A stretch of 64,000 bases of DNA from Naegleria gruberi. Its lineage: Eukaryota. Position 1 is the stretch's first letter, and each line of letters opens with the position of its first letter. Shown piece after piece: positions 8,729 through 33,554 of this stretch. The stretch lies in the NCBI GenBank assembly GCA_000004985.1, contig GG738892.1. One strand, written 5' to 3'. The notes under the pieces were generated by a model. The model was not told the DNA's origin. It worked only from the letters and a program-made list of their open reading frames with translations, and ran no database searches. A program made the translations under genes and the position numbers.

Positions 8729-10555
8729 TTAAACAAAAATTTGTTGAAGGGCAGGTAATTTTCTAAGCATATTTCTAACTTGGTTACCATAGGGGTTTGG
8801 CCAGTATGCACAGAGCCATGTTAAATTTTTCAAAGCAAGTATGGATTTTGCTCCTTCATCAGTCATTCCAATGCCATTAATGTGGAGTTTTGTGAGACGA
8901 GTTAGTCGACTAATAGCCTTAACTCCTTCATCTCCAATTTCATAATCGCTGTAAATGCGCAGTTCAGTTAATTGGCTCATCTGACCAATATATTTAGCTC
9001 CTACAGTTCGAATATTATTAGCGCCAATCGAAAGAGCAGTTAAATTGGGTAATTGACTGATAAATCGAGCCCCTTCTGAACAAATATTATTATAGTCAAT
9101 CTTGAGAATTAGTAAATGTTTCATCTCGCTTATCTTTTCGGCACCTGTTGTTCCAATTTCGTTGTTTTCAATATCAAGTTCAGTTAAATGCTTTAACTCT
9201 GTAATTGATTGAATTCCAGTTTTGTTTATGGAATTTCGTGGGACAATTAATGATGTCAAATGTGTCATTTCACAGATTGATTTGAATTCATTTTGAGTAA
9301 AATTTTTCGAAATGTCAAGTTTTTTCAAATGTTTCATTCTTTCAAGTAAATTGGGATCCAAATAATAATTATAGTGTAGGTACAGTGATTTCAATTGATC
9401 TAATTTGGTGATGGAAACCAATCCATTCGTGGTAATTTTGTTATATCCTAAATTAAGGTATGTTAAATTTGTAATTTCACTACTTTCTACCATTACATTC
9501 TCAATTTGATTATATTGCATATCCAGAAAGGTTAATTGTTTCATTTTGATAATATACTCCGCACCAACATCACCAATTCTATTTCCATTAATGCAAAGTG
9601 CAGTTAATTTTTCAAGTCTACTAATATATAAGGCACCTTTAGCATGAATATGATTATTTCCAATGGAAAGGCATGTCAATTGTTTCATTTCAGCAACATT
9701 TTGTGCTCCTTTAGATCCGAGATTATTTCTATTAATATTGAGCGATTTTAAATATTGTAATTTTTCACTAATCGGCTTGCAAGAGGTAATACCACAACCA
9801 CTAACATTGAGATATATCAAATGATTTAAATTTTCTGCAATTTCCTCAATTCCCAAATCTCCAATTCTATTCTTTTTAATATTAAGATGTGTTAAATTTT
9901 TCATTTTACAAATTGATTCTACACTTTCAATTCTATTATTTCTAATATTCAACAATGTTAAACCTTTCAAATCACTCAACAATTCCAACCCTTCATCTTT
10001 TATATGATTATCCCCTAAATTTAATAATTCCAAATTTTTAAATTGAGATAGTATTTTAACTTGTTCATTTCCAATATCACTTGAAGCAATGTCCAATCTT
10101 TTCAAATGTTTCATTTTACAAATTGTATTCTCTACACTTTCGAATAAAGTTTCATTACCATGATCAACATGTCTTGATTGTTTGAAAAATTGCATAAATC
10201 GTAATCCAACAAGTTTTAAATTGAAAATACCCTCCATATGATGATGTTTCCAACTCGAATAAATCCAAACTCTATTAAAATAACCTTTTCTCATGACCAG
10301 GGAAAGTTTCGCCTTCTTGTTTGTAATCACCCGATCCCACTGTTGCGAAATTAATGTACAAACTGTTTTTACAAATTGATAATCAAGATATTGAACAATT
10401 TCTGAACAAATATCATCCGAAAACAATTCATCTAAACTTTGATAATATTAAAATGATTTTTATAAATTTTGCATGTAAATAGAGATATGTAAATATTACT
10501 TACCACTCGATAATCTAAATTTCAATGATTCCGATAATGATACTTGTTCTGGCAT
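8729..10555 (-). CDS. F-box-like + leucine-rich-repeat protein (RNI-like LRRs), 2 exons: join(8729..10431,10504..10555)
   Basis: The track ORF 8729..10426 begins with TTG, not ATG. An upstream mini-exon ATG CCA GAA ... TCG AGT G is followed by GTAAGT, a 72-nt intron and acceptor tttag|AT, which restores the frame (MPEQVSLSESLKFRLSS-D-ELFSDDICSEIVQYLD...). The body has about 16 repeats of the type LxxLxIxxNxIGxxGAxxIS.Lk.Lt.L. It is a paralogue of the gene at 17310..18524. Confidence 0.6.
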
Positions 10556-12544: not shown

Positions 12545-12616
12545 CTCCCATGCCGGGAATTGAACCCGGACCTCCTGGGTGAAAGCCAGGTATCCTAGCC
12601 ATTGGACTACACGGGA
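12545..12616 (-). tRNA. tRNA-Glu (anticodon UUC), copy 1
   Basis: Minus-strand read TCCCGTGTAGTCCAATGGCTAGGATACCTGGCTTTCACCCAGGAGGTCCGGGTTCAATTCCCGGCATGGGAG folds as a cloverleaf: 7-bp acceptor TCCCGTG/CATGGGA, anticodon loop CTTTCAC. No encoded CCA. Confidence 0.85.
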
Positions 12617-13937: not shown

Positions 13938-15202
13938 TTATTCCAAGTCACCTCTAATCTTTAAAATAATCTTTCCACTATTCTTATTTTGTTCCATATG
14001 TTCATGAGCTTGAATAACTTGATCCATATCAAAGACTGTATCAACATTGGCAACTAGTTTTTTAGTTTCAAAAGCATCCTTAATGTAATCTTTCAATTCT
14101 TGAACAAGTTGTTGCTTATAGAGAGGAGATCTATTTCTCAAAGTACTATATTGAATACGAATTCTCTTTCTCAACATTAATCCTAAATCAATAGTAGCGC
14201 TGGTTCCTCCCATTGATGCAATTCCAATAATAGTGGCATCTAATCTGGCAATTTGTACATCTTGTTCCAAATAGGTATTTCCACCAATTGGATCTAGAAT
14301 ATAATCAATGAGTGGTGTAACACCACTTTCAGAATCATTGGTCAAGATTTTTGAAAGTTTTTCACTCCACTTTGGATTTTCCTTATAATTTACATAATGA
14401 GTAGCTCCATATTGTTTACAAAATTCACCCTTCTCATCACTTCCACAAGTAACACAAATGTTCTTACACAATCCACTCAATTTACACAATTGAATCAATG
14501 CCAATCCAACACCACTTGCACCACCATGAATCAAAACATTGAGATTTCCCTCAACTTTTTCATGTAATCTTCCAATTTTGAAGAAACATTGAAATGCAGT
14601 CAGGAAAGCTTCTGGAATTGCAGCAGCTTCCTTCAATGAAATTCCATTACAATGAAACATTTGACTTGTAGTAGCAATAACATATTCAGAATATGCACCT
14701 CCTTCAACAAGACAATAAACGTAATCTCCAACTTTGAATTGACCATCAGTGGATGTTTCTTGTCCATTGGAAAACTTTTCAATAATACCCGAAACTTCTA
14801 ATCCAATAATTGGACTACTACCAGGTGGTGGTGGATACATTCCATTTCTTTGTACAATATCTAGATACACATTAAATACATTAAATAATTATTAAATATT
14901 GTGATTAATACATTAATTAATAATCGGAATACAACATCATCAATCAAACATTAGCCATTAATATATATTGATAAATATTACAATCATTTAATATATTTAA
15001 TATATTTAATAAAAAACATACCAGCACGATTCAAAGCAGCATAATAAACTTTAATCAAGGCTTGAGTATTACCAACTGCTGATTGTTGTTGTGATGGTGG
15101 TGGGGCAGAAAATTCAGGAATTGGATATTCATTATCAATGTATAAATCTTTGGCTGATTTGGTGATTGGTTGACGAACTTGAACAACTCGTTGATGACTC
15201 AT
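13938..15202 (-). CDS. NADPH:quinone oxidoreductase / zeta-crystallin-like medium-chain dehydrogenase, 2 exons: join(13938..14860,15022..15202)
   Basis: Exon 1 (MSHQRVVQVRQP...YYAALNRA + g) ends at GTATGT. A 161-nt intron ends with acceptor ctag|AT, giving ...[30 protein letters not shown]... with the cofactor glycine motif GGASGVGLALIQL. Typical quinone oxidoreductase family. Confidence 0.75.
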
Positions 15203-15683
15203 TTTTTTTAAATATACTTTACAATATTAAATACTATTGAATGTATAATACTTCTTTTAATTAAGTTCAATACTTGTCGAAATTTTTTCGATTTTGTCTT
15301 TGTTGAGTGATTATCTGGCTATTCCTTCTCAAGTTTCTGATAGCTCTGATTTTTCATCAGCTCCTTCAGATCCAATGTTAACCTTTGATGATGAAAATTC
15401 CATAATGTCATCTGTTAGTGCCTCTGAGAATGATCCATTACTTATCGACCAAACCTCAATATTCTCTGTCATTAGAGAAGAAGCTAGTAACAACTCTCAA
15501 GCAACTCCTCAAAAGAGATAATCTTGGTGTCGAGGTTTATCTTCAATTTTTAAAGTTTGCCTTAATTAAAATTTGTAAAGTTTTATTTAGAATCATTTTA
15601 AAGATGCCTTGGTGAAATTTGGGTGAAAGCAAGCTATTACTGTCCCAATCAGTCGTGTTAACAATTTTTTAATATTTCCCGAA

Positions 15684-15763
15684 GGTGTGTTGACCGAGTG
15701 GTTATGGTGCTGGCTTCAGGTGCCAGTGGGTAAAACCGCGTGGGTTCAAATCCCACACACATC
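15684..15763 (+). tRNA. tRNA-Leu (anticodon CAG), long variable arm, copy 1
   Basis: GGTGTGTTGACCGAGTGGTTATGGTGCTGGCTTCAGGTGCCAGTGGGTAAAACCGCGTGGGTTCAAATCCCACACACATCA. Anticodon stem CTGGC/GCCAG, loop TTCAGGT; class II variable arm; T-arm GTGGG TTCAAAT CCCAC. Confidence 0.85.
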
Positions 15764-15770
15764 AGTTCAA

Positions 15771-15779
15771 ATTTTTTTT
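15771..15779 (+). terminator. Pol III terminator T-run downstream of tRNA-Leu copy 1
   Basis: T9 run 8 nt after the tRNA 3' end. Confidence 0.5.
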
Positions 15780-15804
15780 TCTTAGGGGAAATAATTCTAA
15801 AAAA

Positions 15805-16412
15805 ATGAAAGAACCCAAACTTAATGAATACATTACCGTTCCGTTGGTTTTTATTTGCTGTTCTTCCTCTTCAGAATCATCATCACCATTAAATTATTAT
15901 TTTCTTGAAAAGGAATTTAATGGAAAGAGAAATGATCATGTTTCGTATGCTATTTGTTTGAGAAAGAGATTATATTTTTGGGAAGATGAATTTGATCAGG
16001 GAATGATAATTAATATGAAAGTGCAATTGATAAAACTATTAACCATCCAGCAGCATGATTATGGAAAATTTGAAAAGTTTAATTTTGAGGAATTAACATT
16101 GAAATGAAATTTGAAAGAGTTGATTTCAAATTTAGTAAGCCAATGTTTAATGAACATTCCAGCACTAATGGTGGAGCCAGGAAGGAAATTGATTATTATT
16201 GTGGAGTTAGGGCATTTAGAATTACAATTGAATTGGATCAGATGGATATTAGCAAGTCAATTGTGAAAAGTCGTGAAATTAACTCTATATTTGAAATTGA
16301 ATACAATCCATTTTGTGATATGAATCACGTTGTGGATGAACCATTTCTACAACATGACATGTGCATGAATTTAATTGTAGACGCTGATGTGAGAATTCGA
16401 AACAAAGATTAA
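15805..16412 (+). other. two overlapping ORFs (15805..16107 and 16104..16412) in successive -1 frames; hypothetical, possibly a disrupted gene
   Basis: Both are ATG-initiated. The first stop overlaps the second start (aaATGAaa). No family recognised. Confidence 0.25.
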
Positions 16413-16438
16413 TTGGAAATCCTGTTAAAATTCCTCCA

Positions 16439-17209
16439 ATGCCATTCGATTCCTTACTTCTCCATGCAACAATTCTCTCAAGATTGGATGAATCCAACGA
16501 AAAAGTTCTAATGATTCACTATCGTGATACTGCTAAAAAGTATCGTCATCTTGTGAGAAGAATTTCATTCGAAGATAATAATGGGAAACTTGTTGGAAAA
16601 TTGGGAAAGTGTGAATTGCTTAATTATTTCAAACATTTCAATGAAAAAGTGAGAATTATTTCACATTGTAGAGTCAGTGAAACATGCTACCTTTACAAAA
16701 TTGTTTCAAATCATGATTGTGATACACAATTACATTTCAAATCGGTTAAAGAATTTTCAAAGCATACTCAATGGATCTTAATTGATCTGGAAAGCCGTAT
16801 TGTTAGTGAAATTGAACCATATTATGCTAAACTCCTTCCTTCAAGTATTCCAAATGAGTCAATTGCAATTGATGAGGATGGATTCATCCAAAAACCAAAA
16901 CGAAAAAAGTATTTCGCCATTAGAAATAGAAAGGAGCAACACATTTCGACTGTGGGTTTTTGTGACTTTGCAAGAATCAGTCTTTCCTCCTTTACTCCAT
17001 TCCCCTATTCCTCTTCGAATTCATCACTGGTTAATGTACTTTGTACTGTGATGGTTACTGAGACGACAACTCGTCACAAGAAATTCACGAATGAGAATTC
17101 TGTTGTTTTCATTAATTATCAATTCAAACTTTTGAAAGGAGGATGGAAGGATTTGTTTGAAAAAACAAAAGACAGATCGCTTGTGGATATTGAAATTAGA
17201 TTTAGATAA
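16439..17209 (+). CDS. hypothetical protein (256 aa)
   Basis: ATG-initiated ORF in a third frame directly after the two ORFs above. No recognisable domain. Confidence 0.4.
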   Translation: MPFDSLLLHATILSRLDESNEKVLMIHYRDTAKKYRHLVRRISFEDNNGKLVGKLGKCELLNYFKHFNEKVRIISHCRVSETCYLYKIVSNHDCDTQLHFKSVKEFSKHTQWILIDLESRIVSEIEPYYAKLLPSSIPNESIAIDEDGFIQKPKRKKYFAIRNRKEQHISTVGFCDFARISLSSFTPFPYSSSNSSLVNVLCTVMVTETTTRHKKFTNENSVVFINYQFKLLKGGWKDLFEKTKDRSLVDIEIRFR

Positions 17210-17309
17210 TCTTTGTCTACAACCATCCATCACTTTGATTTAAATGTCAAAATAGTTTACAACACAAAATTTCAAGTGATGAACTTTGTGTCAAGAACAA
17301 CCTAAAAAA

Positions 17310-18524
17310 ATGCATCAACAAGATAAATACACCACCCCTTCAACGTTGCTAGAGAAATCCAATGCTGTATTTTCGGATGATATTTGTTATGAAATATTGT
17401 CATTTCTTGACCATAATTTCAAATCTTCATCACTTTGGAATTATGCATCAATTTCAAAACAATTTATGAAAATAATTGGAGGACGATTGGAATTGAACAT
17501 GTACTATTCAGAAATGACTTCTCAAAAGATTGAGTTAATGAGGAGAAGTATCCTGTCTCAAAATGTTGTGAGTTTGAGAACTGAAAGAGTTTCGGATTTT
17601 CCAAAATTTTGCACAATTCTTAAAAGCATGAATCAATTGAGGAGAGTTGAAATTTGTGGTCATCACTTGAAAGGAGCAACAATTAAACCATTGACCATGT
17701 TGAAACAAGTTACAGATCTTGTACTAAATGAGAATGGAATTAGTGAACTGGGTGTGATTTACATTTCTGGAATGATTCAATTAAAATCTCTCGATATTAG
17801 GAATAATGAAATTAATGTTGAGAGTGCCAAATATATCACTCAACTGCGTAAACTACAATCTTTGAGTGTTTCAGTTCGTAACAATGAAGTTCTGACATTA
17901 ATAGGTGGAATGAAAAATTTGACTCGATTGAGGATTGATAGAAATAACATAGGACATGATGGAGCCAAAATAATCAGTAGAATGAAGCAATTGACCAGTC
18001 TGCATATTTCCAATAATTCACTGCTATCTGAAGGAGCAAAATTGATAAGTAGTATGAAGAAACTAACCGAATTGGTCATTACCAACAATAATATTGGAAT
18101 AATGGGAACCTTTTATATTAGTGAGCTGAAAGAATTAACCAAACTTTGTATTGGTTTTAATTGTATTGGAGATGAAGGAGCCAAACATATTAGTGGGTTG
18201 AAAAAGTTGGTTGACCTTAATGTCACTTGGAATGAGATTGGCCTTGCTGGTGCCAAGTCAATTGGAGAATTGAGAAATTTAACTCATCTTTCTGCGGGTG
18301 AGAATGATATTCCAGCAGAAGGAGCTAAAGCAATAAGTCAATTAAGGAATTTGACCTATCTTGATATTGTAGGCAATCCAATAGGTGATGAAGGAGGTTT
18401 AGCAATTAGTGAATTGACAAAATTGACTACACTCTTCATTGGCGTCTATTCCTTGAGTAATTGCTCAATTGACCAACTCAAGAAAATGAAGCAGTTAAGA
18501 GTATCAGATCTTCTTGATGATTAG
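17310..18524 (+). CDS. F-box-like + leucine-rich-repeat protein (RNI-like), paralogue of 8729..10555
   Basis: The track ORF starts at a TTG (17286). The first ATG is at 17310 (MHQQDKYTTPSTLLEKSNAVFSDDICYEILSFLDHNF...), with the same N-terminal motif as the other paralogue (FSDDIC.EI...LD), followed by about 10 LRRs (N.IG..GAK.IS.LK.LT.L.I..N). Confidence 0.7.
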   Translation: MHQQDKYTTPSTLLEKSNAVFSDDICYEILSFLDHNFKSSSLWNYASISKQFMKIIGGRLELNMYYSEMTSQKIELMRRSILSQNVVSLRTERVSDFPKFCTILKSMNQLRRVEICGHHLKGATIKPLTMLKQVTDLVLNENGISELGVIYISGMIQLKSLDIRNNEINVESAKYITQLRKLQSLSVSVRNNEVLTLIGGMKNLTRLRIDRNNIGHDGAKIISRMKQLTSLHISNNSLLSEGAKLISSMKKLTELVITNNNIGIMGTFYISELKELTKLCIGFNCIGDEGAKHISGLKKLVDLNVTWNEIGLAGAKSIGELRNLTHLSAGENDIPAEGAKAISQLRNLTYLDIVGNPIGDEGGLAISELTKLTTLFIGVYSLSNCSIDQLKKMKQLRVSDLLDD

Positions 18525-18582
18525 TTTCATTGAGATTTCATTTGAATCGAATAATTATAATTTATTTAATTATTAAAAAAAA

Positions 18583-20980
18583 ATGAAAAGACAATATGAT
18601 ATGATTAATACTTGTTCTTCTGATCAAGATGAAGATGATGATTGTACAGAAACTTGTTCTTCCGAAGATGAACAATATGAACTTGCTTTAAAATATTTTA
18701 ATGGGACTAATGTTGAAACAAATTATTCTAAAGCTTTCGACTTGTTTTTGAAGAGTGCGGAACAGGGAAAGACAGAATCACAACATCAAATTGGCTATTT
18801 TTATCATTGTGGATTGGTGGTGGAGAAGGATTTATCTAAAGCAATGGAATGGTATCTGAAAGCTGCCGAAAAGGGATTTTCAGAATCACAATTTTCAATC
18901 GGAATTTTGTTTTATAAAGGAGTTGAAGTGGAGTATTCGAAAGCTATGGAATGGTTTTTGAAAGCAGCTGAAAATGGTCTTTCGAAAGCTCAGTGTAATC
19001 TTGCTGCTTTATATGAAAATGGATGGGGAGTTGAACAAGATTATTCGAAAGCTATGGAATGGTATTTAAAATCTGCTGAACAGGAAAATTCAATAGCTCA
19101 ATGTAATATTGGAAATATATTTGCAAATGGAAAGGGAGTTGACCAAGATTATTCTAAAGCATTCGAATGGTATCTGAAAGCTGCTAAAAATGGTGATTTA
19201 ACTGCTCAATCATTTGTTGCATCATCATTTGCAACTGGAAGAGGGGTCAAAAAAGATTATTCTAAAGCATTCGAATGGTATTCAAAAGCAGCTGAAAATG
19301 ATTATTCTCATTCAGTCTACAGTATTGTAAATGGAAAAGGAACAGACAGTGATGCAAAATTCAATCTAGCTTATTTATACGAAACTGGATCAGGTGTTCA
19401 AAAGAACATCCTGAAAGCATTCGAATGGTATATGAAAGCAGCTCAAGATGGTCATCTAAATGCACAATTTTCCATTGCAGGATTTTATAGAGATGGATTG
19501 GTAGTTCAACAAAATTTTTCAAAGGCAGTAGTATGGTATTTGATAGCTGCTGAAAATGGTCATATGGACGCACAGTTCAATGCTGGTTATGCTTTTGAAA
19601 ATGGTTTAGGAGTTCCACAAGATTATTCGAAAGCTATGGAATTATATTCTAAAGCTGCTGAACAGGGGAGTGCACGTGCTGAATGTAATATTGGAAATAT
19701 GTATTTGTATGGGAGAGGTGTTGAAATAGATTATTCGAAAGCTGAGGAACATTTATTGAAGGCCTCTGAAAGAGGTGATGCATTATCACAAGTTAATGTT
19801 GCATATTATTACATGAATGGAGTATTCGATAGAGATTACACCAAAGCATTCAAATACTTTCTTGAGGCTGCTAAAAATGGTGAGCTAACCGCCCAGAATA
19901 ATGTTGCAAAATTATTCGAATTGGGCCTAGGAACTGAGAAAAATTTGAAACAAGCTCTATTTTGGAATTCAAAAAAATTGAATGATAGTTGCAGTTTTCA
20001 ATTTATTGAGGATCCGTATGACCAATTTGCTTTAAAAACTTTCAGACCAGTAATAGACAGCGAGATGAGTTTAATTACAGATTCGAATGAGATGGTGATT
20101 ATTCGATTTGAAACTAGAGATTTTACAATCTTGAAAAACAAGGTGATCACAAGCAAATACTTGACAACAATGATGAATTCTAATTGGATTGGTTTCAATT
20201 CGAAAGGAGAATGGTCAACTTGTACTTGATTTACAAACTATTGAACATGAAATATTTCAGAGAAATGTCAATCACATTGAAATATTTGAGAAATATGTTG
20301 AATACTTGACAAATGATACGATACCATCTAATTTTGATACTAAAATGGAATTAATTGAATTATCAAGATATTTACAGGACGATTCATGTATTTTTAAAAT
20401 TGTGAAATATTCTGACGTTTTGACAAGATTTTACATTTCATTTTATTTTGACAAAACGGAACAGCTTGACATTCCAATAGTTAGTTGTTATATAATGGAT
20501 ACTACATTCAACACGTGCGATATTTCACCTCATGCAATTGAGAAATTATTGACAGGACCTGATTTATCACCAATTGCCAAGAGGAAGATTTTAGATCTAG
20601 TTCCATTAAATAATTTGGGAACCAATTCGACAATATTCGAAGGTAAGTAATCGAATCAAATTTAATTACCAACCAGCTCGATAGATAACAATACAATTCA
20701 CACAATTTTTTCACCAATTGAAGTTAAAAAGGAAATTAGAATTGATACGAAATCAATTATTCTAGAATTAGAAATCGAAGAAACTGGAATGATAATCAAA
20801 AGCGATGATTTGAGTAATTCCCAGATTTACATTCAATTAAATAATGATAATGATCACGTTGGGTTTTGGTTATTGGTCAATCCTGGAAAAACTATTTTGA
20901 AATTACCAAAATATGATTTTGACACAATTGATATGATTATTATTCCAACCGTAACTGCAATACTGGACCAAGAAAATTGA
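18583..20980 (+). CDS. Sel1-like repeat (TPR-like) protein with a C-terminal non-repeat extension. Multi-exon, model uncertain: 18583..~20142, ~20215..20643, 20724..20980
   Basis: There are about 12 tandem Sel1 repeats (DYSKAMEWYLKAAEQG...AQ.NLG.LYENG.GV.QD). The main ORF stops at 20229 but a second frame is open from 20177. A 72-nt candidate intron GTGATC..aaag (20143..20214) joins them in frame. A clear GTAAGT donor at 20644, an 80-nt intron and acceptor gaag|TT lead to a final exon ending at TGA 20978-20980. Confidence 0.55.
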
Positions 20981-21035
20981 ATCACATCTTGCAAGATAAC
21001 AAGCAAGTCTTGATAGAACCATTGAAATGGCAAAT

Positions 21036-21042
21036 AAAAAAA
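21036..21042 (-). terminator. Pol III terminator T-run downstream of tRNA-Leu copy 2
   Basis: A7 on the plus strand, which is T7 on the minus strand, 7 nt after the tRNA 3' end. Confidence 0.45.
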
Positions 21043-21049
21043 TTTGAAC

Positions 21050-21130
21050 TGATGTGTGTGGGATTTGAACCCACGCGGTTTTACCCACTGGCACCTGAAG
21101 CCAGCACCATAACCACTCGGTCAACACACC
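21050..21130 (-). tRNA. tRNA-Leu (anticodon CAG), copy 2, inverted relative to copy 1
   Basis: Exact reverse complement of the 15684..15763 gene (plus-strand text tgtgtgggatttgaacccacgcggttttacccactggcacctgaagccagcaccataaccactcggtcaacacacc). Confidence 0.85.
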
Positions 21131-21291
21131 TTCGGATATTATTAAAAAATTTTGAATACGACTGATGGCGACACCTTCACTTTAAATTACTGTGCGGCGT
21201 GCATTGATTCTATTAAATATATCTATGGTAATGTGAAAAATCATAATCCAAAAATTAATTTACTATTTCATAACTACAGCTAAATATTAAT

Positions 21292-24200
21292 TTATTTAAA
21301 AACTGAAACTCTGTTGTTAGTCTCCTCACAAATATACAATTCTCCTGTGTGATGATCGACATCAAAACCAGTTGGTGAAAATAATTGACCGTGCTTACTT
21401 CCCTTCTCACCAAATCTCTTGACAATTCTCAAACAACGAGTCTTTCCATTTCTTGGTCCAAGTCTATCAATTAACAAATCATCATAACTTTCAAATTGTC
21501 CCAATTCATCCTTACTCTCCACAAAATTACAATCCTCATAGACATTGATTCGATGCCAATTATGAACTGACAAGTACAAGTATCCTGTAGATCTTTCAAA
21601 ATAAATATAATTGGTGGCCCATTCAATTTCTGGTGAAACACTTAGACTTCTCATATCATGAATTAATTCTCCTTCCCTTGTAAAGACCTTAATGGAACCA
21701 CTTGTAAAATCATAGGCCATTAAATGACCATCATTATTAAAGTCAACTCCCCAACCAGAATTAATTTCCTTAATGGTTCCAATAGTTCTGAGAATTTTAC
21801 CATCATGACTAATAACAGCAATTCTATTATTACACATGTCAGTAACGTAGACATCACTAGTCTCTGGATCGACAGTGAGACATGTTGGAGTAGAAATTTC
21901 ATCTGGATAATCTCCTGCAGATCCTCTTCCTGCTTGCCAAACTTGAACTTTTCCATCCCATGTATATTTGCTGTTTGTGTTGGCATTTCAATTAATTGTA
22001 ATGTAGCAGTAAATGCAATCAATTGTAAGAAAAATAAATAATACATACTAAACCTTATTAGTTGAAGTTCCTGATACAAGCAAAGTCTTATCATTGTAGT
22101 CAAATGCAATAGATCTACTTCCACCTGGAACTGAAAAGTGATACAAATATTTTTTAGTAGCACAATCAAAAACTTGAATTCTACCATTCAAATAATCTGA
22201 AACAAATGCTTGTCTTGTCATGGCATTAATTTTCACATCGTGTGGCAAGCTAAAAAGGCCAGGATCTCTTTGATGTCTAGAGTAATTTCCATACTTGTCT
22301 CCAAGCTTTCCAACATATTCAATCTTTCCAAATAGGCTGAATGTCTTTCTCTTGAAAACCGGTTGAGCAAGAGCTGAGGATTTGGTTGAGTTTGGAGGGG
22401 GCAATTCTTTAAGACCAGTATGGAATTTGGTCTTGTTTGACTTGTTGTGGAGAGTCAAGTGAAGTTCACAGAAATAGGCATCACAATCAGAGCAGTGATG
22501 AGTGGCATTGGTTTTTTCCTCTGCTTCATCAAAACATTTGGTACAATGAGGTACAGAACTTTCCTTCTTCAATTCTACCAAATCATCAACATGGAATTTG
22601 GTCTTGTTTGCCTTATTGTGTAGTGTCAAGTGTTCTTCACAAAAGTGGAGAGCACATGTCTTACAAAAGTGAGTAGCTTGCGTTTGTTCTTCATCATCGA
22701 GACACTTGTCACAGAATCGTTCGCCACTTGAGGAATCATTTGTTTCGGCAAGTGGAATCTTGGTTTCAACTGTTTCAATCAAATTTCCTCTCAAATATAA
22801 ATTAGTAGTGATTAATACATCTTTTCCATCGCCAGCTTGTTCCAACTCAATTGGAATGGATTTTTCATACTTTCCATTTTCTGGAATTAATTGAACTTGT
22901 TCTTCAAATGTTTTTGTGACAAATCTTGTGTCAAATGTAATGACATAGTGTACAGGGTTCGGAGTATACTTTCCATATGGAATTCCAGAAGCATTATTCA
23001 AGGTAATTTTCAATGTTGCTGCCTTTCCTGGTCTGAGAGCAGTTGGATCTTGAGAGATGGATTCAATACTGACAGGATATTGAACCTTAAAAGTTTTTGG
23101 AAGGGTTGAATTGTTAAATGTCTTTCCAAGAAGAGTTGCTTGTGAAATGATGGTAATTTCAGATTCCAAGCCACTACTACCATTCTCTCCTACAGTACCA
23201 TGAAAATCGTGTGGAACGACAATTTCCTCTTGAGGAGCAAGACTTGTATTCAATGTAAAACTTTCCTGACCAGCATTTGGAAGGAATTTGAATTTAGAGC
23301 TAGCCAAACTGGTAAAGCTAATCACTACTCCACTTGGGCATGTCAATTTTCCTTCATTCTTAATTTTGAGACCTGTAATCATGACAGCTTCACCTGGTTC
23401 AATAATTCCATCATTGGTGTTTACATCAGTTGTTTTCAATTCAAAATCTGAAACAACCAAATCATACATTTCACTTGCTTGCTCTAAAACCTGTCCAGTT
23501 TTAGAATCTACAATTACAAACTTCTTAACTCCTGATTGACCAGATTTTGATCCAGGTTCGCCAGCCTTGCCTTCCTGACCAGACTTACCACGATCTCCCT
23601 TTTGGCCATCCTTTCCTTTTTCTCCTGCCTTCTTTCCAGCACCATTTAGTGAGCTAGGATCTCCTCCTGAACCAGCATGTCCACGAGAACCTCCCAAACC
23701 AGCTGATCCAGCTCTACCTTGTTCACCTCCCATACCAGACATTCCTCCTCTACATTCAACTTGTAAAAAGATGAGATATTCTGGGTGGGATGTAGTTACA
23801 ATGACTTGATTGGTTGCATCTCCTCCATTAGCTCCATTTCCACCACTTTAGTTATTATTATTAAATTAGAAATTATTAGAAATAATTTAACAAATAATGG
23901 AAGATGAAAAAACTTACTCTCCACCATTACCTGAATGTCCACCATTTCCTCCTCTGCCACCATTTCCACCATTACCACCACTTCCTCCACTTTCACCTTT
24001 TCCTCCCTTTCCACCATTGCCACCTGATTCATTCAGAGAAGTGAAAAGTAGGGTCAGTACAACTCAATGAAATAGGATAATTAGAAACTTACCACTACCA
24101 CCTTCGCCTCCTGCTCCTCCGTCACCACCTCTACCACCATTTCCTCCATCACCTCCATTAGCTCTGAAAATCAACACGGATTCAGAAGCATCTTTAATAT

Positions 24201-24729
24201 CCAACAAGACACTTTCATTTGCAATATTTGATGACATGTTAAACTTTAACAAATTATCACTCTGGGATTCGATTGTAATTTGCACACTGGTGTGAGGACA
24301 CGATTTACCATCACTAGCATGACTGCCATTCAATCCATCAGTACCATTTCCTCCATTTCCTTTTGTGATTTCACAGAATTCCATAAGATGATGAATTTAA
24401 TGTCAACATATATATATTGAAATCATGTGCAATGATAACAAACCTCCAGAATCACCATCATCTCCTCTACCACCTCCACTCTTTCCCAAATGACCCGATC
24501 TTCCACTCTAAATTTGTTTCAACAACATATTAATATTTACATTTGATCATCAATCATATGATCAACAATACATTAAAATTTCCTTAAATACTATTGTGTG
24601 ATAGAATTACAAACCTCTCCTTTTGATCCTTTTTGTCCAGCTTGACCATCTGAACCATCCGAACCAACCTCACCACTCCAATCAATTATTTTAATCGAAT
24701 CAGTACATGAAGTGGCCATTTTGTTTTTT
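21292..24729 (-). CDS. collagen-like (Gly-X-Y) + 2x B-box zinc finger + NHL-repeat protein, 6 exons (~1000 aa): join(21292..21970,22049..23845,23918..24023,24092..24359,24444..24507,24607..24729)
   Basis: Exon 1 is ATG...GQAGQKGSKGE | GTTTGT. Exons 2-4 are small and encode SGRSGHLGKSGGGRGDDGDSGG, GNGGNGTDG...ANGGDGGNGGRGGDGGAGGEGGSG and GNGGKGGKGESGGSGGNGGNGGRGGNGGHSGNGG, all with Gly at every third position, separated by 64-116-nt introns with GTAAGT or GTTTGT donors. Exon 5 continues GGNGANGGDAT...GEQGRAGSAGLGGSRGHAGSGG...GKAGEPG, then two B-box-like zinc fingers (CDKCLDDEEQTQATHFCKTCALHFCEEHLTLHNK...; CTKCFDEAEEKTNATHHCSDCDAYFCELHLTLHNK). After donor ta|GTATGT, a 78-nt intron and acceptor aacag|C, exon 6 carries NHL repeats (DVYVTDMCNNRIAVISHDGK..., LYICEETNNRVSVFK). 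All phases are consistent. Exact boundaries are +/-1 nt because my count of the printed sequence near 24300 disagrees with the ORF track by one base. Confidence 0.6.
23846..24729 (-). repeat. coding Gly-X-Y triplet repeat (collagen-like), split over four small exons of the gene above
   Basis: Minus-strand codons GGN GGN AAT/AAG/GAT repeated. Read-through ORFs in the track (24064..24384) show GNGGNG...GGDGGNGGRGGDGGAGGEGGSG. Confidence 0.6.
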
Positions 24730-25010
24730 GCTAAATTCGACTTGTAAAACATTATTCAATATTTATGCTCAATCAAACATGAAAGAACTTGCTAGGAAAT
24801 TGCAAATAACCGAATTGGAACACTAATAGTAAGGAGCGCCAATCAAGGTAAAAAATTCGTTGTGGGGGCGATTAAACATAATATTGTTGTCTAAGGCTAA
24901 AATGCGCGTTTTTGATTGTTATCGTGAGAAAATTTTGTACCAACATCGGATCAAGCCTTTTTAATTTTTTCAAAACTTGAAAAAAACAAATCAAAGACTA
25001 AGAGAGCAAA
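24730..25010. promoter_or_regulatory. inferred bidirectional promoter between divergent B-box/NHL genes
   Basis: 281-bp gap between the ATG of the minus-strand gene (24727-24729) and the ATG of the plus-strand gene (25011). No motif verified. Confidence 0.3.
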
Positions 25011-26480
25011 ATGCCACCAAAATTCTGCGCCAAATGTCTCGATGAAGAGGAAGAAGTTGCAGCAACTCATCACTGTCCAACATGTGATCTGTTAATGTGT
25101 GAGGTCCATTTGATGTTACACAATAAGGTGGCCAAGACTAAAGGACATGCTGCCGATGTGGTGGAAGTTAAAGAGGAAGAGGAAGAAAAGAAACAAATAA
25201 TGTGTCAAATGTGTATGGAAGATGATGAGGAAACAGCTGCCTTGTACTTTTGTCCTATTTGCAAGTTGAATATCTGTGAACTTCATTTGAATTTGCATAA
25301 CAAGATGAGCAAGACAAAGGGTCACGAAAAGGAGATCAAGATATTGGGAGAGGACGGATTGAGTACTTGTGCTCATTGTCAAGCTCATTGTCCTGATGAT
25401 TTTGTTGATGCTGTCTTTGCCTGTAGAGAATGTAAAACTAATTTGTGTTATCATCATGCTAAAATTCACACTCTTGCTTGTAATCATGCCAAAAATCCAA
25501 AACCTCAAGGTGAAGGATGTTCCCAACTCGATACCAACTCGTTCCGTCTATTGGCCGATAACAAGTTTAAACAATTTGCAGGAGATTTTGAATTTGTTGG
25601 ATTTTTGGGATCAAGTAATGAAGCTCAGGATGAATTTTTCTTGAAAGGAAGTGAAGGAAAGCAACCTCAACAATTCAAAAAACCAAATGGATTGAAAATT
25701 AACATTTATACAAAGGAAATATTTGTTTGTGACTCTCAAAATTGTAGAATTCAAGTTTTTGATTTGACCACAAGAGCATTCAAACGTGAAATGAAGTTTT
25801 TCAGCTTTTCACCACTTCATCTTGATTTTGATCTTTCAGATGACACTATGATCATTAGTGGTGATAATCAAACAGTTGCCAAGTACACAATGGATGGTAG
25901 AACTTTAATTTGGGAATATGGTAAACCAAACAATTATACTGCAACCGATGAGACATTTGGTAATTGTCGTGGTATTGTTGTAGATAATGAAGGGGATGGA
26001 AATGTTTACATTGCCGAGTGGAATAACGATAGAGTGAAGGTATTGACAAGAGATGGCAAGTTTGTCAAACACTTTATTGAAAAGCAATTATGGACTGCTC
26101 CTCAAGGATTGGCTATTAGAAATGGAAATTTACTAGTCAATTCTCGTTGTTATGGTCAAGGACAAGTTGCTGAATTGAGTCTTCCTGATGGAGAATTTAT
26201 TAAGAGTTATGGTAAAAAGCAAGACCTGGATCCTGAACTCCAAGATTCATGCTACATGTGTGTTGAACGATTTTCAGGAAATATTGTCATTGCGGATACT
26301 GACGATTCGTGGACCTCTCCAATTAAATTCATCAAGGGTCAAAGTTTACTCAAACTTGAAAAACCAAGAGGGCAAGGAAAGTTACATTTCAGTGCCCCAA
26401 CTGGCATTGACATTGATCCTTACACTGGTTTATTGTATGTATGCGATCGTGAAAATAATCGTGTTCAAATATTGAAATAA
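25011..26480 (+). CDS. 3x B-box zinc finger + NHL-repeat protein (489 aa), single exon
   Basis: ATG start. Three Cys/His modules (CAKCLDEEEEVAATHHCPTCDLLMCEVHLMLHNK..., CQMCMEDDEETAALYFCPICKLNICELHLNLHNK..., CAHCQAHCPDDFVDAVFACRECKTNLCYHHAKIH). The C-terminal six-blade NHL signature ends in LLYVCDRENNRVQILK. Confidence 0.8.
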   Translation: MPPKFCAKCLDEEEEVAATHHCPTCDLLMCEVHLMLHNKVAKTKGHAADVVEVKEEEEEKKQIMCQMCMEDDEETAALYFCPICKLNICELHLNLHNKMSKTKGHEKEIKILGEDGLSTCAHCQAHCPDDFVDAVFACRECKTNLCYHHAKIHTLACNHAKNPKPQGEGCSQLDTNSFRLLADNKFKQFAGDFEFVGFLGSSNEAQDEFFLKGSEGKQPQQFKKPNGLKINIYTKEIFVCDSQNCRIQVFDLTTRAFKREMKFFSFSPLHLDFDLSDDTMIISGDNQTVAKYTMDGRTLIWEYGKPNNYTATDETFGNCRGIVVDNEGDGNVYIAEWNNDRVKVLTRDGKFVKHFIEKQLWTAPQGLAIRNGNLLVNSRCYGQGQVAELSLPDGEFIKSYGKKQDLDPELQDSCYMCVERFSGNIVIADTDDSWTSPIKFIKGQSLLKLEKPRGQGKLHFSAPTGIDIDPYTGLLYVCDRENNRVQILK

Positions 26481-26578: not shown

Positions 26579-27817
26579 TTATTTATAAATAACAACCTTA
26601 TCTTCATCACAATTGACATACAAATAGCCATTAGTTGGGTCAATATCCATACCATATGGTCTGAATGGTCTTTCTCCTAATTGAGTTGAGCAACCAGTTG
26701 CTGTAGCCATTAATACTTTGCCATCTTTTTCAGTTAACTCGTAGAGAGTCAATTTCTTAGAGGACGGTTCAGACATGATCAAGTTGCCAGTACACTTTTC
26801 TACTATACAATAAATTGGAGGATTACAGAATGCATTCAGGGTGGAATTCTCATATCCAAAAACCTTATTAACAAATACTCCATCCTTTGTAAATAATTGA
26901 ACTCCTCTCTTGTGATATGTCTTGTTGCAATAGACAAGTAAATTCTTATTGTCGGCTGTCAACCCAATACAGTAAGGATCGTAAATTTCAGCAATGTCGC
27001 TTCCAATCTCTCCCTTCATTGTTCTTAAATATTGACCTGCACTGGAGAAGACTTGAATTCTTGAATTGAAACAATCAGCAACAAATACAGAACCATCCAA
27101 AGGATCGACCACACAAGTAGTATGATCAGAGAATCTGTCATTACTTTCACCTCTTGATTGATCAAATTTCCACACAACTTCACCACTCTCAACTTTAATT
27201 TTGTAAATATTACAACCACAACACAAGATCATTGCTTCATCATTATCACACAAGCACATCCAACGAGCAGTGGAAGGAGCCTTGATCGTTCTCTTTGGCT
27301 CTCTAGTCTTGCTATCAAAAACAGCAATCATACTATATTCATAAGACATGTAAATCTCTTGATTCTTGGCACTCACTTTAACATCAAATGATTTTCTAGT
27401 GCCAAGAGTTTGTTTTTCAATTTCCAAAGTACCAACAAGTGTGAAATTTCCACTAAATGGAACATCACCTCCCTTTCCAATCACTCTAATTTCTGGAGTG
27501 TGTGATTTACTCAGAGTTGAAATCTTGTGCAACTCGACATGATTTTTACATAAATTTAATTTACATTCATGACAATGATGACTAGCCTTCAAACATGTAT
27601 CCAACAATTTCTTCTCCTTCATTTCCAAACACTCATCACACATGTAAACAGGTTTTGAATTAATATCAATCACTTGATCCGCATGCCCGGAAGTCTTCTT
27701 TGCAGCATTATGAAGCTCCAAATGACTCTCACAAAAATAGAGAGCACATTGTGGGCAGTGATGAGAGGCTGGTGTTGTCTCCTCCACTTGTTTACACTTA
27801 TCGCAACATTGAACCAT
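26579..27817 (-). CDS. 2x B-box zinc finger + NHL-repeat protein (412 aa), single exon
   Basis: ATG start. CDKCKQVEETTPASHHCPQCALYFCESHLELHN... and CDECLEMKEKKLLDTCLKASHHCHECKLNLCKNHVELH..., then NHL repeats (FVADCFNSRIQVFS, LYVNCDEDKVVIYK). Confidence 0.8.
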   Translation of the reverse strand: MVQCCDKCKQVEETTPASHHCPQCALYFCESHLELHNAAKKTSGHADQVIDINSKPVYMCDECLEMKEKKLLDTCLKASHHCHECKLNLCKNHVELHKISTLSKSHTPEIRVIGKGGDVPFSGNFTLVGTLEIEKQTLGTRKSFDVKVSAKNQEIYMSYEYSMIAVFDSKTREPKRTIKAPSTARWMCLCDNDEAMILCCGCNIYKIKVESGEVVWKFDQSRGESNDRFSDHTTCVVDPLDGSVFVADCFNSRIQVFSSAGQYLRTMKGEIGSDIAEIYDPYCIGLTADNKNLLVYCNKTYHKRGVQLFTKDGVFVNKVFGYENSTLNAFCNPPIYCIVEKCTGNLIMSEPSSKKLTLYELTEKDGKVLMATATGCSTQLGERPFRPYGMDIDPTNGYLYVNCDEDKVVIYK

Positions 27818-28143
27818 GGCTTTTTTTTTTGATTTTCTTCTTGTGAGTAAGCGACTAAGCGTTTTTTTTGATCACGAAGGATTCTTGTTCGGGTAATATT
27901 TTTGCCTATCGCCCTTTGTGAACATATGTAGTACGGCAATGTTCGATTTGGAAGGGAGAACAACTGGTGCAAAATTTAATCTTTACTACAGTATGTACGG
28001 TTTAGAGTCTTTGAAAAAAACAGTCTTAAATCTTCTATTGAGGTGGTTTAATAATTTTCCTTGATATTGAGGAAAGTGTTGCAATCTTCTTTAAATAACT
28101 GGAAATTTCCAATTTTTTTAAAATTAATAAAAATTAAAAAAAA

Positions 28144-29310: not shown

Positions 29311-29436
29311 GAATATTAGAAGTTACATTTTCATAATATTGTGAACCATTCTTGGTACCAGGAGCTGAAGTCCGTAATTAGTGATTTTACAATAGCAAGG
29401 AAAATCTGTAAAATTTTTTATTGTCAATCAAAAAAA

Positions 29437-31346
29437 ATGTCCAAACGAAGCAATGATGAGAGAACAAGAGAGGAACACGCCAAAAAGATTAAACTCTCGA
29501 CTGTTACCACCAATGAAACAACAACAGCATCACAAACGAATAATTTGTTGATGAATTTACCAAAGGATGAATTTTCACACATGATTTCTTTTTTAAATAT
29601 CGGAGAAGTGATAATGTTGAGTTTGTCATGTAAATTTATTCACAACTTCTTAAACGAACACCTACAAATGATTTATCCATATGTTGTTAATTCATATTCG
29701 GAGGGAAAGTATCCAGAGTGGAGTATTGGACGTGCTTTAAAGACTCATCGAAGATTGGTAATTAATAGCAAGTCAATTGATGAACTTAATGACGTTTTTA
29801 ACAGCATGATTAAAAAGAATGAGCCATTTTCCAAATTAACAAAATCAGTGGAAATAATTAGTATTGATCCTGGATTGGAAATGAAAAAACTTTTAAATCT
29901 CCTTTCCAAATCAACAGGACAACCAAAACAAAATGTGAAATTTGTAAGACTTTCCTATTCTAAAGATGAAAAATCAGATGAAGAAGACGAAGATGAAGAC
30001 GAAAAGACCCAAATGTTCAAAAATATAGAGAAGAATCACCAACATTGACGAGAAACTTGAAATCAATGCCAATTGGTTTCTCTGTCAAGGAATTAATCAT
30101 TGATGATATTGAAATATCTCTTTCAAATATTTACCAAATTCTATCCCATTGTAGTTCTTTGGAGAAATTAAAACTTTCTATATCCTCAGATGATGCAGAT
30201 TTGAAAGATTTTTCTATTGAAGTTCCATTGTTGGAGAATCTCAAATATCTCCAATTAGAGACAGTACATGGTTATGATGATAATGAGCTAAAGATTGCCT
30301 ATGATTTGGTGAAACTTGCCCCTAACCTCGAATATTTGGAGATTACATATGCCAATGAACCTGCAGGTAATGACTTTCTCCTTTTTCTCACACAAAAATG
30401 TCCAAATTTGAAAGGTATTTCTATTGATGTGGATGGCGATGTACCAGATTTACAAATTTCCGATGAAGGAATTCTTACATTCCTAAAAGGAGAACCTAAA
30501 TTAGAATATTTGAGCTTTGCATATTATTGTTGCAATATTAGTGGAGAAATATTTTCCAAAATTGGGCAGTTCAAGAACTTGAGATGTATAAAAATTAGTA
30601 GGGATGTGTACATGGAGGATGCCATAGATCAGTGTACAGATTTAAAATTTGGTGGAGGAATTCTAAACAAGCTAGAATCCATCTCGTTTGGAAGTAATTT
30701 TTCACTCAATCATTGTACCCAATCAGAGAAAGATAAATTCATTACATCCTTGATAGAGATGGCTCCAAACATTAGGGATATTGGAACTCTTAATGATATT
30801 GAAGCTATTGAAATTCTGGATTATTTAGATCAATTAAGTCCACTGTTAACTGTTTTTCCACACCTTGGTGATGAATGCACCCTAGATGAATGCAAAAAAA
30901 TTGAGCTTTGGTTGAAGAAATCAAAACAATTAGAAGAAATTGAGTGGAATTTCAATGTTGATCTTTCTAATATTGAACCAATTCCATCTGTGAAGAAACT
31001 CAGCGTGTATGAAGACCTTAATTTAAATAGTTCCAAGGAATTGAGCAGAGTCTTTCCTTCTCTTACTGAGCTTGCATATTATCCAAAGGAAAATCAAGAG
31101 AACGAGGTTGTTGAATTGTTAAAGAATGGCATTTGGCCTGATTTGAAATGCTTTAAAGGACCAAATAGTGTTTTGAAAGCTAGGCCAAATCTTTATGGAA
31201 ACAGAAAAGATGAGGGTTTAGTTGATTTTATAGAATTGTGTAAACTTGAAGATGAAACTCTTCAGTTTGAAAAGGAATGGCTTATTTTAGATCACGTCGA
31301 AGAGGAAATCAATACTTCTAAAATGATGAAATTCCTTAAAAAGTGA
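29437..31346 (+). CDS. F-box + leucine-rich-repeat (FBXL-like) protein; apparent -1 frame change near 30023..30048 (intron-less join not possible)
   Basis: The first ATG at 29437 (MSKRSNDERTREEHAKK...) gives an F-box-like segment FSHMISFLNIGEVIMLSLSCKFIHNFL. That ORF stops at 30048, and a second frame open from 30023 (track ORF 30045..31346) encodes cysteine-containing LRRs typical of FBXL/Skp2-type proteins. F-box and LRR normally sit on one polypeptide. Confidence 0.5.
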
Positions 31347-33482: not shown

Positions 33483-33554
33483 CTCCCATGCCGGGAATTG
33501 AACCCGGACCTCCTGGGTGAAAGCCAGGTATCCTAGCCATTGGACTACACGGGA
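33483..33554 (-). tRNA. tRNA-Glu (anticodon UUC), copy 2, identical to copy 1
   Basis: The same 72-nt sequence as 12545..12616 (plus-strand text ctcccatgccgggaattgaacccggacctcctgggtgaaagccaggtatcctagccattggactacacggga). The flanks are unrelated. Confidence 0.85.

Follow-up and report, generated by a model that had tools for sequence, protein, structure and literature searches.

How did two identical leucine tRNA genes of Naegleria gruberi come to lie in opposite orientation around a block of protein genes, and does this pair act on the genes that it encloses? We analysed a window of 64 kb (the whole stretch of DNA under study), which is part of a nuclear scaffold of 342,059 bp of N. gruberi NEG-M and whose proteins correspond by exact match to NAEGRDRAFT_71715 through 71727.

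The inverted tRNA-Leu(CAG) pair

That the window holds identical tRNA-Leu(CAG) genes in opposite orientation had been predicted originally and was confirmed with ARAGORN, Rfam and an alignment of both genes:

15684..15764, plus strand: tRNA-Leu(CAG), left copy, 81 nt long, with the long variable arm of class II (ARAGORN and Rfam)
21050..21130, minus strand: tRNA-Leu(CAG), right copy, sequence identical to the left copy (ARAGORN and Rfam)

The predicted coordinates were exact for the right copy (21050..21130), whereas the left copy had been ended at 15763, one base short of its true end at 15764. The two genes are convergent, identical at 81 of 81 nt, and both match the Rfam family RF00005 with 55.2 bits (gathering score 29). 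For the cloverleaf a minimum free energy of -33.6 kcal/mol was calculated (z = -2.5), and the long variable arm is present in the fold. By reading of the sequence, an A box TGACCGAGTGG and a B box GGTTCAAATCC were located inside the gene, both being near-consensus, and a T-run begins 8 nt past the 3' end, with nine T in the left and seven T in the right copy. With cloverleaf, A and B boxes and T-run, both copies appear functional and carry the characteristics of nuclear tRNA genes of the Pol III type-2.

A repeat search placed the genes within the arms of an inverted repeat (15641-15778 and 21036-21173) of 138 nt with 94% complementarity and a spacing of 5257 nt, which is the sole long inverted repeat of such quality in the 64-kb window.

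The window contains another same-anticodon tRNA pair, consisting of two identical genes for tRNA-Glu(TTC):

12545-12616: tRNA-Glu(TTC)
33483-33554: tRNA-Glu(TTC)

Extent and significance of the shared flanking sequences

The homology between the tRNA-Leu copies continues beyond the genes on both sides and comprises the following elements:

15641..15683, plus strand: 5' flank of the left copy, 35 of 43 positions identical to the flank of the right copy
21131..21173, minus strand: 5' flank of the right copy (repeat search, alignment and flank motif scan)
15765..15780, plus strand: 3' trailer of the left copy, GTTCAAA followed by nine T, Pol III terminator; the homology stops here
21034..21049, minus strand: 3' trailer of the right copy, GTTCAAA followed by T7-A-TT, Pol III terminator

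The identity of the 5' flanks amounts to 81% for the two sequences compared, both from the window. Conservation of the flanks had been postulated correctly, although the 5' part was found to extend over 43 nt at this identity instead of about 45 nt at 85-90%. On the 3' side a conserved stretch of about 20 nt with the T-run terminator had been expected; the terminator is included, but the homology comprises only 14 nt (14/14 identical, GTTCAAATTTTTTT), or 16 of 18 positions when lengthened, with the T-run at its end.

Within the 5' flank two blocks, ATCAGTCGT and AATTTTTTAATA, are perfectly common to both copies, and the eight mismatches over 43 positions are too few for showing any clustering. 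Local alignment of the proximal 5' flanks resulted in a score of 46 compared to 14.2 +/- 2.6 for shuffled sequences (z of about 12), and a degenerate flank motif of 28 nt, with up to three mismatches allowed, was present solely at the two tRNA-Leu sites (0 expected). Past -43 and +15 the alignment scores of 21-22 are at background level (shuffles about 23.5). A structured RNA or a known RNA family in the 43-nt flank was considered and rejected, as neither an Rfam match nor a stable fold was obtained. The flank may represent a Pol III upstream or initiation region or promoter context.

In alignments of the identical tRNA-Glu(TTC) genes from the same window no flank similarity was detected, neither upstream nor downstream. 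The original prediction had named generic Pol III elements as a possible cause of the flank similarity; since the tRNA-Glu flanks share nothing, the similarity at the Leu genes is not a generic Pol III signal, and a strong constraint on flanks is therefore not general in the N. gruberi genome. The comparison thus argues for a common descent of the Leu flanks as DNA. The shared flanks also bear out the proposal that more than the tRNA was duplicated, and that the adjoining upstream region and the terminator were part of what was copied as DNA.

Genes enclosed by and surrounding the pair

Between the two tRNA-Leu genes the following protein genes and open frames are located:

15805..17209, plus strand: N. 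gruberi-specific orphan gene, annotated as NAEGRDRAFT_71720 plus NAEGRDRAFT_71721 (exact match)
17286..18524, plus strand: leucine-rich-repeat protein gene (Pfam LRR_6/LRR_8/LRR_4, E 1e-19 to 1e-25)
18583..20229, plus strand: Sel1-repeat protein gene with 11 Sel1 repeats (Pfam PF08238, E 1.8e-107)
20189..20650, plus strand: 153-aa ORF, overlapping the end of the Sel1 ORF in a different frame

The orphan gene had been described as a hypothetical locus of three ORFs. These three ORFs exist; alignment with XP_002668399 and the paralogues identifies them as a single gene, split by two frameshifting deletions, one of about 4 nt near 16096 and the other of about 34 nt near 16389. Across the three frames the gene has 96.5% amino acid identity to XP_002668399, which is encoded on a separate N. 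gruberi scaffold of 8,155 bp, and it is collinear with the paralogues NAEGRDRAFT_63814 and NAEGRDRAFT_66235 on other scaffolds; paralogues were found in N. gruberi only. The gene probably represents a defective allele or a pseudogene, and the local gene models are to be corrected in that NAEGRDRAFT_71720 and 71721 are pieces of one frameshifted gene. No significant match was obtained in Pfam (best E 0.048, short of the cut-off of the family) or among PDB sequences (best E 0.17), and a single-sequence AlphaFold model was unusable (pLDDT 34.5).

For the second gene, assumed to encode an F-box/LRR protein, the LRR domain was verified with Pfam but an F-box is absent from the Pfam results; it is an old paralogue (30% amino acid identity) of the LRR gene at 8732-10447 on the minus strand. 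The Sel1-repeat gene was recognized correctly, and its repeats are visible in the DNA as a periodicity of 108 nt (repeat families D1-D3). The adjacent 153-aa ORF, which has no Pfam match alone or joined to the Sel1 ORF, may represent the C-terminus of the Sel1 gene after a frameshift. A continuation of the Sel1 gene into a BTB domain past the frameshift, guessed by eye, was not supported by Pfam.

The ADH and NHL genes lie outside the tRNA-Leu pair, and the orphan and Sel1 genes inside. As these neighbours of the tRNA copies are unrelated, the duplication comprised just a small tDNA cassette. We also considered, and rejected, an ancient inverted duplication of larger size: the paralogues in the window (LRR and B-box/NHL) are old, with 24-32% amino acid identity, they have other symmetry axes and are not mirrored around the tRNA-Leu pair.

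Synteny and searches for further copies

No locus syntenic with the tRNA-Leu region was found in N. fowleri, in N. lovaniensis or in two relatives from metagenomes. The ADH orthologue of N. fowleri and of an ENA metagenome contig resides in an ADH-ASCH-L7Ae context which is missing from the window, and around the ESCO orthologue of N. lovaniensis and of a Logan contig the pair of ESCO and FAD-monooxygenase alone is common to the window. These loci of N. fowleri, N. lovaniensis and the Logan contig contain no tRNA genes; one tRNA-Ile is present on the ENA contig. JGI metagenome contigs were scanned for exact matches to the 5' and to the 3' half of tRNA-Leu(CAG), with 0 found in either case; 0 matches also resulted from a scan of IMG/VR viral contigs for tRNA-Leu(CAG), and a protein database search with peptides from the three open frames of the tRNA-Leu gene revealed no candidates.

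Origin of the pair

The tRNA-Leu(CAG) pair most plausibly derives, with a probability of roughly 70%, from a short and local duplication at DNA level, in which a cassette of 138 nt was copied and re-inserted in inverted orientation about 5.3 kb away. As expected for such an event, the homology reaches past the mature tRNA into the flank, and this is absent at the tRNA-Glu pair. The cassette would consist of the tRNA gene of 81 nt with 43 nt of flank upstream and, up to the terminator, 14 nt of trailer. Each copy has what Pol III type-2 transcription requires, namely A and B boxes within the gene, a stretch rich in A/T upstream and a T-run, so that both should be transcribed independently and supply CUG-decoding tRNA. 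The tRNA body was presumably kept identical by purifying selection, while the 5' flank diverged by about 19%. Given this divergence the duplication is not recent, and deletions could therefore have trimmed a longer original. Copying might have occurred by a template switch during replication or through a break near a tRNA gene at which a DNA fragment was captured; at the copying junctions no microhomology or junction signature was identified. The genome of N. gruberi contains 924 tDNAs (PMC2888827). Assuming about 20 copies per anticodon and about 41 Mb, both of which are our own estimates, a second identical tRNA copy would occur within 5.4 kb by chance with a likelihood of about 0.5%.

The exact coincidence of the 3' homology limit with the Pol III terminator would fit a functional constraint or an RNA intermediate as well. 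Selection could have preserved isoacceptor-specific Pol III elements in old duplicates or in a dispersed family whose neutral flanks have decayed. The perfectly conserved ATCAGTCGT and AATTTTTTAATA are in line with this, as is an A/T-rich block at -25..-10, a position where TATA-like elements of tRNA genes are located in some eukaryotes. However, the tRNA-Glu pair of the same window has no conserved upstream or downstream sequence, the small number of mismatches reveals no clustering, the 5' flank has neither RNA structure nor an Rfam match, and the neighbouring genes are without mirrored paralogy, also at protein level; we regard selection as a possible but unlikely cause. If the 43-nt flank were common to other tRNA-Leu(CAG) genes, the pair would have to be explained by a family that is dispersed, or by an upstream element under selection, instead of by a local copy. 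An RNA intermediate, with one copy being a retrocopy of a Pol III primary transcript, would explain the 3' boundary at the T-run, but upstream the homology extends 43 nt past the mature 5' end, and the usual leaders of Pol III tRNA transcripts are much shorter. Moreover, neither an A-rich tail nor a target-site duplication, as for a retrocopy or a tRNA-derived SINE, is present at the tRNA-Leu copies, and a reverse-transcriptase gene was not seen in the window, which makes this origin most improbable. We give equally little credit to an ectopic gene conversion between independently located tRNA-Leu(CAG) genes with a tract spilling into the flanks. Fission yeast provides documented cases of conversion among dispersed tRNA genes, and conversion would be consistent with bodies that are 100% identical between flanks that differ by 19%; it requires homology on either side of the tract, though, and cannot create homology in unrelated flanks. 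The pattern expected for body-only identity is displayed by the tRNA-Glu pair, and purifying selection alone explains the identical bodies.

According to the original prediction, inverted repeats of this kind can mediate inversions and can mark integration sites of mobile DNA. On this reading the inverted tDNA pair would form the termini of an insertion or of a composite mobile element, or drive a reversible inversion of the 5.3-kb block. An inverted repeat of this length and identity (138 nt, 94%) would in principle permit homologous recombination, the region is non-syntenic with N. fowleri and N. lovaniensis and full of lineage-specific genes, and yeast tRNA genes show an enrichment of about 3-fold at breakpoints and at sites where genes were gained (PMC2675101). 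Nevertheless, this reading has little probability. Outside the arms no target-site duplication is present, as the left ...CAAGCTATTAC and the right CCTTCACTTTAA... form no direct repeat. LRR and Sel1 were the sole Pfam families among the ORFs of the block on both strands at E up to 1-5, and domains of a transposase, integrase, reverse transcriptase or recombinase were not detected. The GC content of the block (32-34%) is like that of its surroundings, without a compositional anomaly, and its genes are members of ordinary N. gruberi families, among them the orphan family that is restricted to N. gruberi and has paralogues on other scaffolds. Loss of synteny spans about 8 to 28 kb and further, well past the block, and is not bounded by the tRNA genes. 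The proposed role of the pair as an integration mark of mobile DNA was thus not upheld; the inverted pair probably arose as a side effect of tDNA amplification and is unlikely to serve for moving or flipping the genes between its arms.

Comparison with known systems

With composite transposons and invertible segments flanked by inverted repeats the locus has in common that a block of genes is bracketed by inverted copies of one sequence. In contrast to these, the N. gruberi pair is without transposase, recombinase and target-site duplication, and its arms consist of tRNA genes of the ordinary housekeeping kind.

In yeasts, evolutionary breakpoints and gains of genes have their hotspots at tRNA genes (Gordon, Byrne and Wolfe, 2009; Di Rienzi et al., 2009). 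The tRNA genes of the present locus likewise lie in a region of lost synteny with lineage-specific or fast-evolving genes, but this association is anecdotal, coming from one window, there are no Ty-like retroelements, and no breakpoint falls exactly at the tRNA genes.

The locus illustrates how tRNA genes multiply in a tDNA-rich protist by very short local DNA copies, and matters little beyond annotation. Should the same cassette limits recur throughout the genome, they would mark out the functional Pol III transcription unit of Naegleria, whose Pol III promoters are uncharacterised. As a far-reaching and improbable extension, the 138-nt unit might be a self-contained tDNA cassette that is copied recurrently by template switching or fragment capture and would explain the inflated set of approximately 924 tDNAs in N. 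gruberi; convergent pairs might additionally be boundary or fork-barrier elements or inversion substrates around fast-evolving blocks.

The closest counterparts are the same-anticodon tRNA pairs and clusters of eukaryotes. An excess of local tDNA pairs has been ascribed to local DNA duplication (Bermudez-Santana et al., 2010; PMC2888827), and in Dictyostelium discoideum tRNA gene pairs and triplets with identical anticodons occur (PMC8163159); a systematic description of tDNA pairs in Naegleria was not found in the literature searched. As in the present case, genes of identical sequence are separated by a few kb in the genome of a protist rich in tDNA and are ascribed to local duplication, and head-to-tail, head-to-head and tail-to-tail arrangements are all found. 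The N. gruberi pair differs in its distance of 5.3 kb, which exceeds the 1-kb cluster definition of the Bermudez-Santana survey, and in the duplicated DNA of just 138 nt. Local copying of tDNA is an ordinary route of tRNA gene multiplication.

An inverted pair of identical tRNA-Leu(CAG) genes

The window carries two tRNA-Leu(CAG) genes of 81 nt each, which are identical in sequence, lie in opposite orientation and have a class II cloverleaf fold. Together with their flanks they form an inverted repeat with arms at 15641-15778 and 21036-21173 (138 nt, 94% identity, spacer of 5257 nt), the sole long, high-identity inverted repeat within the window. The homology between the copies comprises three parts: the 5' flank, the tRNA gene and the 3' flank. 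The original prediction of such a pair with conserved flanks was confirmed by ARAGORN, Rfam, repeat search and flank alignment. A scan of metagenome and viral contigs for tRNA-Leu(CAG) gave no matches, and a protein-database search, used as a proxy for further copies, found none.

Features of the pair and its surroundings
12545-12616 (-), tRNA-Glu(TTC), first copy
13938-15202 (-), quinone-oxidoreductase-like ADH gene, outside the pair on the left
15684-15764 (+), tRNA-Leu(CAG), left copy (ARAGORN, Rfam)
15805-16107, 16104-16412 and 16439-17209 (+), three ORFs of the orphan gene, left end inside the pair
LRR protein gene, second gene of the block, following the orphan gene (Pfam domain match)
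Sel1-repeat gene, third gene of the block, right end inside the pair (11 Sel1 repeats)
21050-21130 (-), tRNA-Leu(CAG), right copy (ARAGORN, Rfam)
21292-23742 (-), B-box/NHL gene, outside the pair on the right
33483-33554 (-), tRNA-Glu(TTC), second copy

ORFs of the window match exactly the annotated N. gruberi proteins NAEGRDRAFT_71715, 71718, 71721, 51768 and 71727, all located on one 342,059-bp scaffold, and also 71720. Genes for a REV3-type DNA polymerase, an ESCO acetyltransferase, Avl9, an ankyrin-kinase and an adenylate cyclase were found, and the window is rich in LRR, Sel1 and B-box/NHL genes. This gene content and a GC content of 31-38% fit the nuclear genome of the heterolobosean amoeba N. 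gruberi. At 43289-49348 (-), the 2019-aa catalytic subunit of a REV3-like DNA polymerase zeta contains a BAH domain at residues 583-713 (Pfam E 1.3e-17), a combination that is not known from other REV3 proteins. Three diverged DUF7932/B-box/NHL paralogues lie side by side at 21295-23847 (-), 25002-26477 (+) and 26582-27871 (-). On the N-terminal side of a DUF7932/B-box/NHL-repeat gene lies a Gly-rich, collagen-like stretch (23569-24348, -) whose repeats have a 9-nt period.

Conserved flanks and extent of the duplicated unit

The 5' flank homology spans 43 nt, 35 of which are identical between the Leu copies, and both share the sequence ATCAGTCGT...AATTTTTTAATA. The 3' flank homology covers 14 nt (14/14 identical), GTTCAAATTTTTTT, which represents the trailer and the beginning of the Pol III T-run. 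The conservation is real and above chance, even if the 5' identity is slightly lower than originally predicted: an alignment score of 46 was obtained for the proximal 5' flanks (shuffles 14.2 +/- 2.6), and a degenerate 28-nt flank motif, allowing up to three mismatches, occurs only at the two Leu sites, with 0 expected. In the adjoining 600 nt on each side beyond the homology, alignment scores were no higher than those of shuffles.

The tRNA-Glu(TTC) pair, two identical 72-nt genes in direct orientation and 21 kb apart, served as control. Its flanks resemble each other only at background level, and no motif is common to the Glu and Leu flanks. A general Pol III signal thus does not account for the similarity of the Leu flanks, which stems from shared ancestry of the DNA. 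All four tRNA genes in the 64 kb belong to same-anticodon pairs, an indication that tDNAs are often amplified locally in the N. gruberi genome.

From sequence comparison, the duplicated unit is the 138-nt cassette alone. The neighbors of the left and right copies are mutually unrelated, and an all-against-all BLASTP of the window ORFs revealed only old paralogues, namely an LRR pair (8732-10447 and 17283-18521, 30% identity) and the three B-box/NHL genes (24-32% identity). A larger mirrored duplication was rejected, as the symmetry axes of the paralogues differ from that of the tRNA pair. Similarity between proteins persists longer than that between neutral DNA sequences, and identity in the 5' flank is still 81%; a larger original duplicate would therefore remain visible.

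The raw 5' flank divergence of 8/43 corresponds to a Jukes-Cantor distance of ~0.21. A Logan contig (ERR1078381) differs from the window at roughly 2% of nucleotides, ~10 times less, so that the duplication is not recent. The contig matches 13869-14924 with 97-98% nucleotide identity, several indels and the last ~150 nt unaligned; its probable source is a strain or haplotype of the N. gruberi group, related to but distinct from that of the window.

Genes within the block

The three hypothetical ORFs predicted inside the pair are present but constitute one broken gene, as XP_002668399, a partial protein of 302 aa whose gene lies on another N. gruberi scaffold (8,155 bp), matches the window successively in frames +1, +3 and +2 (280/290 residues identical, 96.5%). 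Relative to this protein, deletions of ~4 nt near 16096 and ~34 nt near 16389 are implied in the window copy. NAEGRDRAFT_71720, NAEGRDRAFT_71721 and an unannotated 102-aa ORF are thereby fragments of one ~470-aa gene (15805-17209, +), and the window copy probably represents a pseudogene or else a defective allele. When 1.84 billion representative proteins were searched exhaustively with HMMER, only NAEGRDRAFT_63814 and 66235 emerged as further relatives, both from N. gruberi and both collinear with the three ORFs. With all four family members restricted to N. gruberi, the gene is a lineage-specific orphan.

For the predicted F-box/LRR gene the LRR assignment holds, while Pfam detects no F-box. 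At the end of the Sel1 ORF a 153-aa ORF begins in another frame (overlap of 41 nt, 20189-20229, +), which may indicate a 1-nt frameshift within a longer gene; Pfam found no domain in the joined sequence.

Comparison with other Naegleria

The ADH gene has orthologues in N. fowleri and on an ENA contig from a metagenomic relative, and these share a mutually conserved ADH-ASCH-L7Ae context. This arrangement is absent from the window, where the ADH gene stands between tRNA-Glu and tRNA-Leu genes, so the gene or its surroundings have been rearranged in N. gruberi. For this PIG3/quinone-oxidoreductase-like gene (13938-15202, -), no N. gruberi entry exists among the database homologues, and it is apparently unannotated. 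Around ESCO, the N. lovaniensis locus and a second Logan contig have only the pair of ESCO and FAD-monooxygenase in common with the window; the two genes are adjacent there, whereas two ORFs are inserted between them in N. gruberi (29341-31346, +), one of which shows weak LRR-like similarity (LRR_At5g56370). No tRNA genes were found in the N. fowleri, N. lovaniensis and second Logan loci, and the ENA contig carries one tRNA-Ile. As the orthologue contexts do not match the window, the whole stretch from ~8 to 28 kb is lineage-specific, and none of the loci compared is an orthologous counterpart of the tRNA-bracketed block in which its orientation could be read.

Origin of the pair

If ~20 copies per anticodon in ~41 Mb are assumed (our own estimates), a further identical tRNA gene would lie within 5.4 kb with a probability of ~0.5%. 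Given this low probability and the shared flanks, local DNA duplication is the best explanation for the pair. The cassette may have been copied by a replication template switch, or a DNA fragment may have been captured at a break; inverted orientation and tiny size fit both. In yeast, replication forks are known to pause at tRNA genes, which are also hotspots of rearrangement (PMC2675101).

Other origins are less likely. The pair had also been proposed to mark an integration site of mobile DNA; this reading is not supported, as no transposase, integrase or reverse-transcriptase domain was detected in any block ORF on either strand, no target-site duplication was found outside the repeat arms, and the GC content of the block is like that of its surroundings. 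A mobile or invertible element formed by the pair itself is likewise the less probable reading. The same applies to a selected upstream element behind the flank similarity; the 43-nt 5' flank matches no Rfam family and does not fold stably. A retrocopy origin of one copy and gene conversion between the two genes are also less likely than local duplication.

Overall, the pair is real yet ordinary: a tRNA gene duplicate, short, local and inverted, in the tDNA-rich genome of a protist. N. gruberi harbors about 924 tDNAs, and close tDNA pairs generally exceed chance in eukaryotic genomes, which was attributed to local DNA duplication (PMC2888827). The identical tRNA-Leu(CAG) genes resemble the tRNA gene pairs and triplets with identical anticodons for which Dictyostelium is noted (PMC8163159).
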